Shown here one piece after another: positions 1 to 21,244 of a stretch of 64,000 nucleotides of DNA. The notes under the pieces are model-generated. The model did no database searches and had not been told where the DNA came from. It saw only the letters and a program-made list of their open reading frames with translations. This DNA is from Spizellomyces punctatus DAOM BR117 (lineage: Eukaryota). The stretch lies in the NCBI GenBank assembly GCA_000182565.2, contig KQ257451.1; one strand, 5' to 3'. The translations under genes were made by a program, and so were the position numbers. Positions within the stretch are counted from its first letter, which is position 1; the number at the start of each line of letters is the position of its first letter.

Positions 1-874
1 CGATCGGTTGTCACAGCTCTGATAATGTCAATATAAAAGGGCAACACGCAAAGAAAGTCGAGGAGTCGGGAAAAGTTGAATATAGCACGGAGGTTCGGTG
101 CTGAGATGATATGCAACAGTAATTCGAGTGTGAACTAGAAATGATACACATACGGAGCTAAGAAAAAAAACATGGTCATGCTACAGAGAACCAATATGTC
201 AACATACCACAACCAGACAGGCAGCTTCAACCCCATACACTGCTCGAATAGCTGTCGTATCTTTCAAAATCGCATCCACAGTCCCCAAACACATGGTCAC
301 CACCGAAATCAGCAGCGCACCAGTAAAGATCCTTCTCAACGTCCGTCCAATCAACGAATGCTTTCGATCATGCAATATATGCTGAATCTTTTGACGCCAA
401 GTCATATGAGACATGCTAGAATTCGACGAAGTCGACGACGTTGACGTCGGTGACCTCGTTATAGGTATGGCTACAGCCGATAGTCTACGTCGTACTGGAG
501 GGTCGCTTGCATGCGCATTCTCTCGCTCATCTGATGAATCCGAGTCCTCCATAAGATCATCATCATAGTCGTCAAGTTCAGGGTTAAATTGGTAGTCGGA
601 TGGATGTGGGCTAGGCGGATTGGAAAGTCTGCGGTTCCTCGTGGTAGTGACATTGGCGGTGGAAATGGATGGTGGCTTGGGAACATCAACCCTGTACGGT
701 GACATGAATGTTAGCAAACAGCTGTCTTATAAACAGAAAGCATAAACCCGCTATTCGCTGTGGTTTGACTGACTTTTCTAATTTCCAGTTCCGCCCATCC
801 TGTAAACTCCCCAATGACGCACTGCGCCCTAAGCTCACGCTATTATGACGTTGATTAGAACGCAGTAGAACCAT
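1..874 (-). CDS. Voltage-gated K+ channel-like ion transport protein, N-terminal part (continues beyond the window start)
   Basis: Splicing intron 135-207 (GTG|GTATGT...CTAG|TTC) joins S1 'IFTGALLISVVTMCLGTV' and S2 'VEAACLVV-FTLELLLHI' to S3 'LLDFLCVLPFYIDII', a Kv-type S2/S3 signature. A probable first exon starts at ATG 874 and uses donor AA|GTCAGT with acceptor TACAG near 692. S4 and the pore lie outside the window. Confidence 0.8.
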
Positions 875-1340
875 GATGCCTCATAGCACCAACAATAAGG
901 CTGTATATGTTGATTCAGCAAACAAAAAGTATGCTAGAAACTACAATTCGACAATGGACAAAAAAAAAAACGACGAACGACCCAACTGCCATGGGTTCTC
1001 AAACAGAAAGTTTTAAAGTTCCTATTGAATGATTTTACCAGTTCCCTGGTCTTTTGGGCTTAGTCAGGCGTCAAAAACGTGCCCCGCTGGATGATGAAAA
1101 CACTTGCTGGATTTTTGGTCATTTAGATTCTTTCAACTGAGAATACTTTAAATAAACCGACACACTATCACTGGAAATAAGCTGTATCAGATGTATTGAG
1201 GCCACTATCCATTTCATATCATTAACATATTCCGCAACTCTATGCTGTACTACAGTTTACATACCCATCATTCTATACTGTACACGAATTGAGTTCTGCC
1301 CAAAATACAAATACCATGTATATCCACAAAAACTAGCCTC

Positions 1341-14902: not shown

Positions 14903-17900
14903 ATGATGCATACAACTGCCCGCCTTGTCGTAATCACATTGCTCCTACCATGGACTCTTGTCTTTGCCCAAGTTAATGGCCAACAGAAGCCCACAGGCAT
15001 CGGTGTAGAAGGCCAACCCCAATTTTCCTCGCAAACACTGCCGGATCCGAGCACTTACCAGCATTCAGTCTCTCTGGCGAATGTCGGGAGTGGAAACTAT
15101 TCTATGGCTTTTGCATTGGAAAATGGGGCGAAGAGCGTGAGGTTTTTGATGATGTTGAGCGGAGTACAATTGAATCGGGTTCGTTTGACATGCATGCCTT
15201 GTCATCACCTTTATTAGCGTACCTGACTACTAGTTTGAAACATGGCGATAACACAGGCATGGATGGGCATTGGGTTTGGTTCCTCCATGCTCTCCTCGGG
15301 ATTCATTATTACACATCTACTCGCAAATGGAAGCGTTGAAATGCACGAGCACACTCATAGAAATCAATATGCTCCGCCAACCAGCCACGAGGATCCTAAG
15401 AACTGGGTAATGGAACCGCTGAACGGGGGATACGTCAATGGCATAATGTTCAGTGAATTTCGTCGACCAGTCGATCCGCCGCCGCCGGTCGAATACCCGC
15501 ACGTCACTTTGTCCTTCATGAGTCCTCAGCATATGATTTGGGCGTATAATCCAGCTTCGAAAATAAACACATTAGGGCATTATTTTACATATCACATGCC
15601 CAATGATGGTAAGTATTGCATTCATGGCAATTGTCGTTTTCGGCAGTAAAGATGATTTGGAACCCGCTCAGATAACGGAAATGGCTTGCCCCACCTTCCT
15701 AACCAAACCCACGGCGCCCTCCTGGTAGACTACACCCGGGCGACCGTCGAACCCATCCCTCTTAATCCGTACCCTCCCAAAGTGGCTCACGGGTCACTCA
15801 TGTTCATTGCATGGCTCGTCATACTGCCAATGGGTGCCTTCATCTCCCGATATCTCCGCTTCATTCCGAATTGGATCTATTTCCACCTCACCGCTCAGCT
15901 TCTCGGGGTCCTGATCATCATAACATCGTTCGTGGTCATCCTGGCAACCTACATTAATTACAATTATCCCCATGCAATTCTGGGGACGACCATGATTGGG
16001 TTGCTGTGCTTACAGCTGTTACTGGGATTAGGGAACCGGAAAATGTTGCGAAGTGTCTTACCGTACTCCCCTCGTCGCCAGTTTATACGCATATTCCATC
16101 GAACGTTGGGGTACACTCTACTTCTCGCCGCGATCGCACAAGTAGCTCTTGGATTGCGCATCCTCTTTCCCTTCGAAGAGCGGCGTGGGCTTGCATTCTG
16201 GATCGTGTACATTATCGTCGCAGGATTGTGGATCCTTTTGTTTCTTGGGACCGAATTGTACCGCCGACTCTTTTTATCCGTTAAGGATAAGACTGTTCCA
16301 GCTCCGGAGGTGGAACAAGGGAACAAGTTCCTTGAAGCAGGAAAGCCCGTTCCGAAAGGGATGACAGAATTGGCAAAGGTGCAGGATGAAAAAGTCTACC
16401 CTGATTTACTTTCGTATGATTGGAGATCTCTGGATAAGGCCGTGTCGGATGGGTGCGTTCGAGGTCTTTTCCTTTTGAGTTTGCTAGCGCATTGTTGTGA
16501 CTTGCTTTCAATGACGAGCAGGGCGATCCTTGTAGTAGCGAACGGACGCTACGTCTACGACGCTTCCCAGTGGCTCCGGTAAGGTCATGCTGTTGTATCG
16601 TCCTCTGTATGATCTGGTCTCAAGCAAGCATGATTTTCATCTATTCAATGCAGCTCTCATCCAGGTGGTCAGGTAAAAAGTCCCACAGTTCCACAGCATT
16701 ATTGGTTCGTCGAGCAATAGCAGTGATATTTTCCATTCTAGATCATCCTCTTGGCAGTCGCGGGAACCGATATATCCAGTGATTATTTTCATGAAGGTTC
16801 GTACCTAATCACATTTGGGAGTCCCATTAAGAACGAAAGCAAGTAACAGTCATCAATTTTCAAATATAAAGCCGGATACGATGCAGCGGAATTTACCCCA
16901 CCTCGTCGCATACCATTACAAAGGGCAGAACGACAAGATGTGACGACTCTGCACGAAAGTATCCCGTCCACCACGCCTTCCAATCTCGCTCCTGATAGTT
17001 TGACGTCAATGAGCGGTACAACAGAGTTCATGGAGACATCACACTACTTGACTGAGGAGGACTGGTCCAAAATCGTACGAGCACGTCGAACGCATGTGCA
17101 TACAAAAGTCGCTATCATGCGCTTGTCGAATTTGCTAGTGGGGGAGTTACATCCTTCTCATAAACGGTGGCAGAAGGCGTTGAACCAGGGGAGCGAGCCT
17201 ACCCTTGTAAATCAAGATGTTGGGGATGGCAATGACGATGCACAAAACAGATTATTCGATCCAGAGGAGTATCGTCGGTATGCTTTAACATCAAAGACAC
17301 TCGTCAACCCCAACACTCCTGGCCACCCAATCTTCCGCCTGAGATTCTGTCTTTTGTATCCTTACGAGCGCAGACAAGGCGAGCCAGAAATTATCTATCC
17401 TGGGCAAGCAATGGAGATTCAGATTCGCCCACATGCCGATCGAATCCCTTTATCGAGGTACTATTCGCCTGTTCATGGAAATATGATGGCTCTTGAAGTC
17501 TTGGTAAAAATGTACCCTGGGGACGGAGTATCCGGATATTTGGGAAAACAGCGACTTGGGGAAAGACAGTTCAAGATTCGCGGCCCGCTTGGGGATCCAT
17601 TGGTTGGGCCGGAACGCCCGCTGGGGTTTGGCGGGACTGGGGCGGATTGGGTGCCGGAAGATATGCTATTCGTGTGTAAGTATAGAGAGACAACTCTACG
17701 GCTAGTAGGCTGGTAGTTGTCAGGAATATCTGTTTGCGAGAGCTCTTGCTAATCCATCTTAAACAGCGGCGGGAACAGGTATAACCCCGTTCCTTCAACT
17801 TCTTCAATATCTCTTCCTACCCACATCCGTTCCCCTCCTTGTAAGCCTTCATTTACAAATCCCAGCGTCCGTCCCCAAGGATCTAACTCGCAACTTTTAT

Positions 17901-18602
17901 ATCGCAGGCAAATGGTGACTACACCCCCGCAATGTCCGATGAAATTGCTCTTCACGAGGGGGACACTATCGTAGTGCAACATCATTATCTGGACGGATGG
18001 GCTCTAGGACGGAACATAACCACGGGTACGGAACTGCATCGACCATCAGTGATAATCAGTATAGAGCTCATTTCCCAATCCCAATGATAAATAGGCGAAG
18101 AAGGAGCATTTCCTCTCCCAAAAACGCATCCCCGCACCTCAACGAAATTAACGTTACTCAACGCTGTGCATGCCCCACAAGACATTATTGGAACAGACCT
18201 CATCGATGCGGTTCTTCTATCTTACCCTCGGCACCTTCAAGTTCACCACGTTATATCATTGCGCGAGGGTAGTGTGGAGAATGTCAGCGGATTCGTATAC
18301 AGGGGGCATGTATGTGAGGCTGTCTTGGCACAGGCTGTTTCGAATGAAAGCATGGGGGATGAGGAAAATGAGAGAAGGTCTGGGAGGCATGCAGTCGTGT
18401 GTGGACCGCCGCAATTTAACTCGGCGATGGTGGATCAGGTGGGTTCAGGAAATTATTTGGGACAATCTGTTTGTTTATACTGATGCCTTGCTCTCGGAAT
18501 ATGCAGCTCATTTACAAGTTTGGATACCAAAGCACCGATGTCACCATGCTGACCAGCGATTCGCCGTATTGGTATCATCATCTTGAAACTTGTAATGGGT
18601 GA
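14903..18602 (+). CDS. Signal peptide-DOMON-cytochrome b561-cytochrome b5-FAD/NAD(P)H reductase fusion with an internal SH3 domain (about 991 aa, 11 exons)
   Basis: Exons 14903-15178, 15257-15608, 15672-16452, 16522-16578, 16654-16672, 16742-16796, 16872-17675, 17767-17840, 17908-18025, 18095-18438 and 18507-18602 are all GT-AG bounded and sum to 2976 nt in one open frame. Motifs: DOMON WMGIGFGSSM...IWAY...YH; b561 AHG, FH, PH, FHR; b5 VYDASQWLRSHPGG; FAD RYYSP, GVSGYL, RGPLG; NAD(P) AGTGITP, CGPPQF; SH3 DY..DEIAL..GD...GW..G..G.FP. Confidence 0.9.
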
Positions 18603-18923: not shown

Positions 18924-21244
18924 TCACACCTCTTCGGCAATCTTAGAGCTTAATATCCCTCTACAATATTCCCCAAAACAATCCACAACACTTGGTTTTG
19001 ACATCGAGTTTCCTGTTCGCAGTTTATCAAGTTCATCAAAGAACATTGCGTGAATGCTTGAGAGGGCAGCCTGGACGGGTTGGAAGGAAACGTCCCAGAT
19101 GTTGTATGCTGAGTGTGCTTTTGGACGTATTTCCTGTGATTGAGTTAGACCAATGTGCCTCTGTGACTCAAATATGAACGAATGACCTACAATTAGGTGG
19201 CTGTGCTGATCCTTTCGCCATGACATGCGACTGTCGTCCACAATAAGCGGCTCCAATCCGAATCCATAACCATATCCTTCTCCCTCCTCCTTCGGTAGCG
19301 CACCCTTTTGTTCCTCCTCCCACAAGTGCCAAAATCCATACAGACTAGCCAAATCTTTTGGAGGTGGGAGAGCGCCCTTGTCTCGTGACGATGGTTCCGC
19401 AGATTTCCTGCCCTGCATTTGTTTCAAATGCTCATATTCGCTTCGTGCAGAGTATGCCGTTCCAGTAATACGCAGTGCAGAACCGGCTGGTACGTCGTTC
19501 AGAATCTCACAGACTTGTTGGACGTACTCTTGGTCTCCTATTGAACAAAGGCTGATTTCAAATCTTTCCTTGGCCCAATCAAGGAAAGCAATGACGGACG
19601 AAGAGAGTACGACTTGCATTCCGCGACGCAAGGTTACCACACGGGATTCCGGAACTGTTTGAATGAGATATTAACTTGTGATCATCAAAAAATGTATCTT
19701 GCTAATGCGTACTTAATGGTACTTGTTCTCGTGGTAAAGCTTTTGGCTCAGGGCCCACAGCCCGGAGAATAGTATCGTCAATGTCAAGGACGAGGGGGAG
19801 CTTGCGATCGAACAGCATTTTATCAACCTGCTGCCGTAGCGCCTTGCGAATGGCACCGGCCGGTATAAAGTAAGCAAAGATCCTAGGTGACGGAAGGAAA
19901 TAGCATAAGTTTCTAACGGCTTAGTAAAGTCACAATCCAGCCGATCAGACTTACTTTCTATTCAACTTGTCTCGTGAAGGCTTCAGGTGCATCTCCCATT
20001 CCCTGTCAGTTCCCTTCTCCTTGATATTTACATGAACAGTCTTTCTCAATCCGGCCAAATCCTTCCAAAAGTCACTATCTGGTTCCGGCCACTTGAAGAC
20101 AAGCCGATGCTGGCTACCGTAATGACCAAGTTGACCAAAGCTGCTGAAAAACGAACGCGGGAGGGGTTTTTGAACTTGGAATGTAGAAGCTAGCAGAAAT
20201 GTTTCGTTGAATGATATCGTGCTGACTTCGTGCAAGGTTAATGTACATGGTGTGTTATATGGTGCGGGTAATATGAGAGTTGGTGAATAGGGCGGAAGTC
20301 GGGATTGAGAGGAAAACTCGATATACGTGGGAACAGGAGTTGGAACCACCGGTTGCTCATCAACGGCTGGAAGATGCCAATGAGGTTAATGCAAACAAGA
20401 TTAAGGGACCCAGCGGAACTCTGAAGGATTGGTGTACCTGGTGTAAGAGTAGACTGGGTTATCGGTGCCATAAGGCCATCCAACCCTCCTGGAACTTGGT
20501 GATTCTGTATCGTGGCATTTATAGCTTGTTGTGGTTGCATGTATGTTTGCAAACATGATACCAGGCTACACACATACTGTTGAAAAATGGAGAATAAACT
20601 GGTAAGGCAATGAAGACACTGATGGGACTGATGTCTTGCATGCACATGGCTATGACTGGAGATGGACGATCATGTCCATCTTTCGACAGTACACTGCCAA
20701 GATATGTCGACGTAGGGAGTGGATACGACTCCCAATGTTTGGGTATGTAAAGTCAATCCAGCGCGTTTTCTCCCCAAGTATTGGATATGCTGCTCCAATC
20801 CAATTGCAATGGCAAGGCTCCTTCATTTTGTGCATCAAGATATGTAAAGCGCAAACTCACCTCCAGTTGACGTTGTGCGTCGTCGGGCGACACAACTGGG
20901 GACAAAAGAGGCAAGTTGGTCGTCGGCGACATGGCTTGACCTTTCTCTGCCGTACCATCTATATTCAGCGGAGTGCCAATTTTTCCCGAAGCTGCATGAC
21001 GGACAGTTGGAACATGCGGGTAATGTTCATGGCGTGGTGAAATCGCTCTGTATGGTTTGAAATGCTTTTTGCGTGATGACCCAGTAGTGGCTTGTTGCGC
21101 TTGAGCATGCGTGCGAGCGGCGAGCTGCCGTCGATCTGAAGGTGGTCGTTGGTGTAGGTGAACGGTGCCGTTGGGAAGAGCTCCCCGATGCGACCGTGGT
21201 TGGTGACCGACGGGTCCCGCAGCCCAACCGCGTCGATGATCCAT
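18924..21244 (-). CDS. Fcp1/CPL-like HAD-family CTD phosphatase; 5' exon structure uncertain
   Basis: An exon near 19720-19880 (not in the ORF track) reads KMLFDRKLPLVLDIDDTILRA, with the DxDxT motif at 19771-19785. Downstream: VTLRRG, FEISLCSIGDQEYVQQVCEIL, LIVDD and ALSSIHAMFFDELD, which are FCPH-domain hallmarks. The start at 21244 (MDHRRG...QLE|GTGAGT) is tentative. Confidence 0.75.

Follow-up and report, generated by a model that had tools for sequence, protein, structure and literature searches.

SH3-controlled electron export is usually studied in the multi-subunit phagocyte oxidase. In this NOX2 system (p47phox, p67phox and NOXO1/NOXA1) the assembly of SH3 domains controls a transmembrane exporter driven by NAD(P)H, and does so in trans: the SH3 domains are carried by separate cytosolic subunits that bind the proline-rich region of p22phox. 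To our knowledge, it is rare for a redox enzyme to have a signalling module inserted in its core fold. Here we describe a gene of the chytrid Spizellomyces punctatus DAOM BR117, SPPG_00880, in which the SH3 domain lies in the catalytic chain itself. The gene is located in a stretch of 64,000 nucleotides of contig KQ257451.1 (assembly GCA_000182565.2), called the window below, and all positions are counted from its first letter. The product, a protein of 991 amino acids (P0001), is a transmembrane redox protein that zoosporic fungi make as one chain and of which we found no description; its b5-reductase fold contains a real and ancient SH3 insertion.

Electron exporters with an SH3 domain in their NAD(P)H-binding part are already in print. 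An excerpt of Zhang et al. (2013, PMC3591440) reports that two NOX homologues of Naegleria gruberi carry an SH3 domain within the C-terminal NADPH-binding domain, and proposes an unknown proline-rich partner for it. As described there, the Naegleria proteins resemble the chytrid family in being haem-containing transmembrane electron exporters whose NAD(P)H-binding domain holds an SH3 domain (PF00018) in cis. They differ in the membrane module (ferric-reductase/NOX in Naegleria; DOMON, cytochrome b561 and cytochrome b5 in the chytrids), in the flavoprotein (a NOX dehydrogenase as against a b5 reductase) and in the lineage of the host (Heterolobosea as against zoosporic fungi). The chytrid family is thus the b5-reductase-fold variant of a published arrangement. 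The Naegleria protein was absent from the 28 matches of an SH3-profile search for longer proteins, which comprised chytrid proteins, animal sorbin, vinexin and CD2AP, and one Mortierella protein.

The remaining parts of the chain recall two other groups. Described CYBDOM proteins (plant CRR and HYP1; animal SDR2/FRRS1) have an N-terminal extracellular DOMON domain followed by a b561 core and draw electrons from cytosolic ascorbate; we know of none with a flavoprotein. The chytrid family appears to share this order, together with the Met/His pair of DOMON and the His residues of b561 (H281 less so), and adds cytochrome b5, a b5-reductase module and the SH3 domain on the same chain. Plant CYBDOM members are ferric reductases, according to excerpts of two reports (PMC10784552, PMC10784544). 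The fusion of cytochrome b5 to a b5-reductase FAD/NADH (flavin adenine dinucleotide/nicotinamide adenine dinucleotide) module is, on the other hand, that of Ncb5or/CYB5R4 and of nitrate-reductase-type enzymes, and the corresponding structures are recovered with the chytrid protein (Ncb5or 6mv1/6mv2, Foldseek E 1.5e-12, VIA Z 16.6; nitrate reductase 5yly, Foldseek E 1.7e-13). These fusions are soluble and have neither membrane haem domains nor an SH3 domain. In Ncb5or a CS domain stands between b5 and b5 reductase, whereas the chytrid insert lies within the NAD domain. We found no paper describing the chytrid family, or a DOMON-b561-b5-reductase fusion, in the literature searched, which excluded most subscription journals.

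An SH3 domain within the NAD(P)H-binding fold

The host gene was identified by using the translation of the exon at 16874-17674 as a query, which returned the 100% identical 991-residue protein SPPG_00880. A sequence-derived 11-exon model (Table 1) translates to this protein letter for letter. The original prediction placed an SH3 domain here, and the Pfam profiles agree when run on the spliced peptide: in the full-length protein SH3_1 (PF00018) reaches 34.3 bits at residues 810-852 (cut-off 22.9) and SH3_2 reaches 26.1 bits (cut-off 21.8), with SH3_9 under its cut-off (26.7 against 30). The 39 residues encoded by 17908-18024 alone score 29.6 bits with SH3_1 (E 5.3e-7) and 25.5 bits with SH3_2, again above these cut-offs.

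Structural prediction gives the same picture. The domain of 58 residues was modelled by AlphaFold2 (AF2), with an alignment of 25 family members as input, at a predicted local distance difference test score (pLDDT) of 95.4. The isolated-domain model has strands at 3-5, 24-30, 35-40, 46-50 and 54-56, the last two separated by a 3-10 turn (51-53), which is the five-stranded beta-barrel of SH3. In a VIA structural search of 48,161 chains, all 50 of the top matches listed were SH3 domains (Z 9.6-12.9, root mean square deviation 0.9-1.9 Å); the best was that of FUT8 (Z 12.9, 0.9 Å over 58 residues). A PDB search with the family profile placed the vinexin SH3 domain on top (E 1.8e-13). In the full-length AF2 model (pLDDT 86.2, predicted template-modelling score (pTM) 0.71) residues 801-860 have a pLDDT of 94-97, and residues 803-858 are modelled as a complete and well-folded SH3 domain.

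The domain had also been predicted to interrupt the NAD(P)H-binding Rossmann-type fold, and this is where it is found. GTGITP (784-789), which is the GxGxxP motif for the pyrophosphate of NAD(P)H, precedes the insert and NAD_binding_1 covers residues 860-956, corresponding to profile positions 24-106 of 109. Since this profile picks up again at position 24, at residue 860, the insert follows strand 1 and helix A. The order of elements in the AF2 model is a strand (777-783), a helix (784-797), the SH3 strands and a further strand (863-870), with later strands at 893-899 and 943-948. In the NAD(P)H-binding sub-domain of the model the SH3 domain therefore takes the place of the short loop that connects helix A to strand 2.

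As predicted, most of the domain is carried by an exon of its own (17908-18025), and joins at GT..AG sites (17767-17840/17908-18025/18095-18438) give the reading frame as originally written. As a whole, it occupies 17829-18132 and is spread over three exon pieces: exon 8 ends ...SAGTGITPFLQLLQYLFLPTSVPLL, exon 9 reads ANGDYTPAMSDEIALHEGDTIVVQHHYLDGWALGRNITT and exon 10 opens with GEEGAFPLPKTHPRTSTKLTLLNAV. The exon had been described as missing from the track of open reading frames (ORFs). This is true of that track, a prokaryote-style ORF list, and not of the locus: a stop-to-stop ORF at 17887-18087 and the public gene model both contain the exon. Exon 9 lies between a phase 0 and a phase 1 intron. 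Its omission would throw the rest out of frame and lead to a stop about 18 codons on, and retention of intron 8 or of intron 9 also introduces stops.

A contig of 3,126 nt (L001), found among metagenome contigs with the homologue P0003, encodes an orthologue (P0003 residues 1-974) in one frame and runs without introns straight through the FAD domain, GTGITP, the SH3 domain and the NAD domain; the same metagenome contigs gave no match when queried with P0001. L001 is either a transcript or an intron-less gene, and in both cases the SH3 domain is in frame there without any assumption about splicing. The orthologous stretch (L001:203-3124) has an in-frame stop at codon 686 (Glu in P0003) and one more difference at residue 962, which might be explained by a variant, by an error or by L001 being the copy of a pseudogene. 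The indirect evidence that the SH3 exon is constitutively included is strong: the reading frame, the identical public model, the homologues and L001 all agree.

The host enzyme and its family

The original prediction regarded the host as a NOX enzyme, and this part has to be abandoned. SPPG_00880 is a single-chain fusion of a signal peptide, a DOMON domain, a cytochrome b561 with five transmembrane helices, a cytochrome b5 and a b5-reductase-type FAD/NAD(P)H module into which the SH3 domain is inserted. The Pfam families found in this protein family are DOMON, Cytochrom_B561, Cyt-b5, FAD_binding_6 and NAD_binding_1; Cytochrom_B561 scores 23.5 bits in P0001 (cut-off 23). At E<=0.001 the NOX-type families PF01794 (Ferric_reduct), FAD_binding_8 and NAD_binding_6 have no match in P0001, and in a set of 24 family members they match none, none and one, respectively. 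The public names of family members are automatic labels (for example, 'Cytochrome b5 heme-binding domain-containing protein').

Structural comparison of the parts leads to the same assignment. In VIA the membrane part (residues 239..405) matches cytochrome b561 4o6y (Z 15.9) and Dcytb (Z 15.7), and residues 51..235 match the DOMON domain of dopamine beta-hydroxylase (DBH; Z 14.1). The flavoprotein is closest to yeast Cbr1 and human CYB5R3 (7w3o), both at Z 20.7, the alignment with the latter taking in 240 residues within 642..975, with NOX dehydrogenase domains ranking below the b5 reductases (Z 15.7-17.4). Foldseek and the PDB profile search concur on the b5 reductase 2eix, nitrate reductase and Ncb5or (2eix: Foldseek best match, E 5.8e-14, template-modelling score 0.81; profile search, E 3.1e-18). 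The whole of P0001 as a single-sequence PDB query retrieved one b5 match only. A search of the ESM Atlas with residues 640-991 returned ordinary b5-reductase-type clusters, none with an SH3 domain, and feature scores of 0.80, which is the level of a lead. The AF2 model has five predicted helices at 244-411, an arrangement which would leave DOMON outside the cell and place b5, the flavoprotein and the SH3 domain in the cytosol.

Most of the residues expected of a working redox chain are conserved. The putative haem ligands of DOMON are kept in 66 of 71 (M103) and 73 of 75 homologues (H205), and three of the b561 histidines are almost invariant (H249, 76/76; H310, 77/80; H352, 76/77), as is H491 of b5 (81/81). 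In the flavoprotein the FAD motif R709-Y-Y-S-P (R709-x-Y-T/S-P in the family) has its Arg in 75 of 81 homologues, the GxGxxP motif is well maintained (G784, 80/82; G786, 76/82; P789, 65/82) and the Cys of C948-G-P-P is found in 60 of 71. A further histidine, H590 in the motif RARRTHVHT (585-591; window ~17090-17110), about 80 residues past H512 (window ~16797-16873), is kept in 81 of 83 homologues and could serve as a substitute ligand of the haem or belong to an interface.

To establish how widely the insert is distributed, we used a HMMER search of 1.84 billion representatives. This gave 1,514 matches at E<=0.001 and 171 at E<=1e-30, and 164 proteins were fetched. The presence of the insert was scored with hidden Markov models built from the family alignment. 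Of the 103 homologues that span the insertion point, 101 have the SH3 insert. The two exceptions are a Chytridium lagenaria protein (P0046), whose gene model looks as though the SH3 exon has been lost, and a Phlyctochytrium protein (P0112) with a degenerate SH3-like stretch. In a first set of 24 proteins, the full insert was present in 17 rows and the remaining seven end or break shortly past GxGxxP. All named members belong to the Chytridiomycota or the Blastocladiomycota (Allomyces, Blastocladiella, Catenaria and Sorochytrium). A quick tree of 71 rows contains a well-supported blastoclad clade and two Spizellomycetales paralogue clades, both with the SH3 domain. The insert is ancient: the two Spizellomycetales paralogues have it, as do the two fungal phyla in which the family occurs. 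Compared with P0001, 70 homologues have a mean identity of 0.43 in the SH3 domain and of 0.46 in the FAD domain; the values are 0.27 in the remainder of the NAD domain, 0.35 in b561 and 0.28 in DOMON. By this measure, purifying selection on the SH3 domain is as strong as that on the FAD domain.

One Boothiomyces sp. model (P0002, 1,433 residues) contains two GxGxxP-plus-SH3 modules, with SH3 domains at 428-479 and 1282-1335, the result either of duplication in tandem or of two genes having been merged.

The coordinates of the features around the insertion site are listed in Table 1.

Table 1. Position of SPPG_00880 in the window and of the gene pieces on either side of the SH3 insertion
Feature	Position	Strand	Description
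SPPG_00880, whole gene	14903..18602	+	11 exons, 10 introns of 63-91 nt, GT..AG ends
Exon 8	17767..17840	+	Strand 1 and helix A of the NAD(P)H-binding domain; GxGxxP motif
GxGxxP motif	17772..17789		G784-T-G-I-T-P789, within exon 8
SH3 start	17829..17840	+	V803-L806; last 12 nt of exon 8
Intron 8	17841..17907	+	67 nt, GTAAGC..TCGCAG, phase 0
Exon 9, SH3 core	17908..18025	+	118 nt; A807-T845 and first base of G846; RT loop, n-Src loop, distal loop, strands a to d; AF2 pLDDT 94-97
Intron 9	18026..18094	+	69 nt, GTACGG..AAATAG, phase 1
Exon 10, start	18095..18132	+	Final SH3 strand and 3-10 turn, G846-P858, GEEGAFPLPKTHP
Exon 10, remainder	18133..18438	+	NAD(P)H-binding domain from strand 2 on, including CGPP (C948)
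Exon 11	18507..18602	+	C-terminal tail; stop codon 18600-18602

The RNA evidence comes from a single raw-read run (X9); the sets X3, X4 and X5 are genomic contigs with introns. Loose ends of RNA reads at 18438 and 18504 fit the junction of exons 10 and 11, and support the last intron only. At position 18400 three of nine RNA reads have G for the T of the window, owing perhaps to a difference between strains or to an error. The 3' ends of two convergent transcripts lie about 35 nt apart, to judge from loose ends with poly(A) after 18756 (+ strand) and with poly(T) before 18791. The convergent downstream gene (18924-19920, - strand) has a weak match to a NIF/FCP1-like phosphatase (PF03031, 19.3 bits, under the cut-off). 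A Nowakowskiella model (P0170, 1,337 residues) includes PF03031 together with b561, SH3 and b5; either this neighbourhood may be conserved or the P0170 model may be fused.

Ligand pocket and possible role of the SH3 domain

Pocket residues were mapped by aligning the family on the SH3 domain of vinexin, the best PDB profile match. Several of the usual ligand contacts are kept: the second Tyr of ALYDY (Y811) is aromatic in 73 of 78 homologues, W837 is found in 71 of 76 and P852 in 70 of 71, and the acidic pair of the RT loop (D817/E818) is nearly invariant. A canonical PxxP-type pocket has both ALYDY tyrosines and the Tyr of P-x-N-Y, and two of these are replaced here. The first ALYDY Tyr is lost throughout the family (position 809 is Q/A/S/T, and G in P0001), and so is the SNY Tyr (position 855 is V/C/I/K, and K in P0001). 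The original prediction had noted PLPK in place of PxNY and suspected an altered pocket. Both points stand: the profile alignment to vinexin pairs PGNYVAP with PLsvtlP, and a non-aromatic residue occupies each of the two positions. A near-invariant His (H832, 62/76) has been gained, and the flanking residues L805, T856 and P858 are conserved. Because two canonical tyrosines are replaced and the first xP pocket is dismantled, the ligand is probably non-canonical rather than a plain PxxP peptide.

The closest SH3 sequences are the C-terminal domain of vinexin/sorbin (SoHo) proteins and the domains of certain chytrid multi-SH3 proteins, with the common signature DE-L-L..GD...(D)DGW..G.N..T...G.FP. 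Vinexin and sorbin keep both pocket tyrosines (MYQY, PGNY), unlike the chytrid reductases. With the single exon as a PDB query, the six best matches are to the SH3-B domain of p47phox (NCF1; E 6.8e-6). A specific kinship with p47phox was rejected, since the family profile ranks vinexin/sorbin above it (E 1.8e-13 against 7e-10).

The multi-SH3 proteins (P0105, P0119, P0124, P0126 and P0137, also P0165 and P0166, from Chytriomyces, Siphonaria and Entophlyctis) are membrane proteins in which an SH3 domain of this subtype (DDGWA.G.N..T..EG.FPLDCL) is repeated 9-10 times in tandem. The linker motif [RK]x0-2[ST]S[ILVM][YFQ] (RxSS[IL]Y) follows 42 of their 47 copies, compared with 0.27 expected (maximum 3 in 1,000 shuffles). 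By analogy, these proteins may be self-binding arrays, whose motif resembles the ligand R[ST][ST]SL of Fus1. Excerpts of two papers describe the yeast Fus1 SH3 domain as binding R[ST][ST]SL instead of PxxP (PMC5823434, PMC5417721), with Cys at position 37 (after the Trp) and at position 54 (the SNY Tyr; PMC5823434). Positions 838 (A/C) and 855 (V/C/I/K) of the chytrid reductases are likewise non-aromatic, which is an analogy in pocket change only. A Fus1-like ligand within the reductase itself was considered and rejected: a strict RxSS[IL]Y-like motif occurs in only one of 82 reductase linkers, against 0.6 in shuffles.

The host probably delivers electrons to an acceptor outside the cell, with NAD(P)H as their source. 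Electrons would move from NAD(P)H to FAD, to the haem of b5, to the two haems of b561, to the haem of DOMON and finally to an acceptor such as Fe(III). As a self-sufficient enzyme, it would be related to the CYBDOM ferric reductases, which are fed by ascorbate. From known FNR (ferredoxin-NADP+ reductase) and Rossmann topology, the loop between helix A and strand 2 should lie on the edge of the sheet opposite the nucleotide/FAD cleft, so that an SH3 domain in this loop would not gate access of NAD(P)H. We think it fairly probable, without being sure, that the SH3 domain projects from the distal face of the NAD(P)H domain as a constitutive docking module and that a non-canonical peptide or protein partner, once docked, would place or regulate the electron exporter.

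A number of observations weigh against parts of this picture. The distal placement is that of known folds, not of measured contacts. The RNA run, which was 3'-biased and of which ~6% was read, has a depth of ~0.1x over the SH3 exon and gave no read that connects this exon with the ones on either side. DOMON scores 27.2 bits in P0001, under its Pfam cut-off of 32.7, and is matched in 11 of the 24 members (best E 4.3e-11); FAD_binding_6 scores 20.5 in P0001 against a cut-off of 21.1, yet 18 of the 24 match it at E<=0.001. The second axial His of b5 (H512) is kept in only 37 of 81 homologues, and H281 of b561 is His in 55 of 78 and Lys in 22 of 78, so the haem chain may not be canonical in every member. 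Finally, a hinge at 521-530 (FTPPRRIPLQ) has a pLDDT of 85 between disordered stretches and might dock, possibly on the SH3 domain.

This hinge is the basis of an alternative, an intramolecular clamp, that we consider unlikely while giving it some weight. The SH3 domain would bind its own proline-rich hinge after b5 (F-x-P-[KR]-x-x-x-P, 521-528), or a basic-Ser motif farther along the b5-FAD linker. Acting as an autoregulatory latch, perhaps under the control of phosphorylation, it would in this way hold the mobile b5 domain in place relative to FAD or set it free. The hinge columns are moderately conserved (F521, 61/83; P523, 63/82; K/R524, 44/82; P528, 51/82) and the segment stands out from its flanks in the full-length model (pLDDT 85 against 57-64), although its score may be due simply to its being the end of the b5 fold. 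Of 82 homologues, 29 have PxxP within the first 25 residues of the linker (shuffled mean 16.7, maximum 27) and 37 have [RK]x1-2S[ILVM] (shuffled 19.0, maximum 32), counts that kinship among the sequences inflates over shuffles. Against the clamp, P0001 itself has no PxxP in that stretch, and the strict RxSS[IL]Y-like motif is not enriched. A still smaller chance falls to a purely structural role, in which the domain binds no linear motif and either mediates dimerisation or, by packing against the membrane face or another part of the enzyme, keeps the cytosolic domains in position. The family-wide loss of the two pocket tyrosines and the conserved flanks would fit this role, as would the whole-chain pTM, which suggests a defined arrangement of domains, and the presence among the top VIA matches of the enzyme-embedded SH3 domain of FUT8 and the SH3 dimer of IB1/JIP1 (Z 12.1). 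The near-invariance of Y811, D817/E818, W837 and P852 would be unexpected, however, for an unused groove.

The original prediction amounts to a NOX with a built-in switch of the p47phox type, through which the export of electrons or superoxide would be linked to proline-rich proteins of polarity or actin. The p47phox matches of the single exon and the Naegleria NOX homologues, as reported in the excerpt of PMC3591440, speak for it. The b561 membrane part (Z 15.9 to 4o6y) without a ferric-reductase (NOX/FRE) domain refutes its NOX component, the flavoprotein is of b5-reductase type, and vinexin and sorbin outrank p47phox with the family profile; the dismantled first xP pocket also argues against the plain PxxP ligand of such partners. 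We hold this reading to be very improbable. Hardly credible at all is an artefact of annotation or splicing, by which an SH3-like exon would lie outside the mature protein. The missing RNA junction reads are what could be said for it; they are opposed by the frameshift on skipping, the stops in both retained introns, the insert in 101 of 103 homologues, the in-frame SH3 domain of the intron-free contig and a conservation equal to that of the FAD domain. A constitutive docking module remains the reading we prefer.

What the insertion may mean for zoosporic fungi

Having been kept since before the two fungal phyla split, the insertion very probably does something. A broader proposal, which we put forward as tentative and on balance doubtful, is that the Chytridiomycota and Blastocladiomycota hold an undescribed class of self-sufficient transmembrane oxidoreductases that lead electrons to an extracellular acceptor along one chain (NAD(P)H, FAD and four haems, namely that of b5, two of b561 and that of DOMON), in which a cis-embedded, non-PxxP SH3 domain would switch or position electron export in the manner of the separate organiser subunits of animal NOX. 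If this is true, the cis SH3 domain would be independent of, or anciently shared with, that of the SH3-bearing Naegleria NOX.

If the SH3 domain regulates or positions the enzyme, the protein would offer a compact and genetically tractable model of SH3-controlled transmembrane electron export; Spizellomyces is transformable. The atypical pocket, together with the tandem SH3 arrays and their RxSS[IL]Y linkers, provides a lead to a non-PxxP code of SH3 recognition in early-diverging fungi. It would appear from the host that ferric reductases of the CYBDOM type can be coupled directly to NAD(P)H in place of ascorbate. This would have a bearing on the acquisition of iron or copper and on extracellular redox chemistry in the chytrids, a group that includes pathogens of amphibians and algae.

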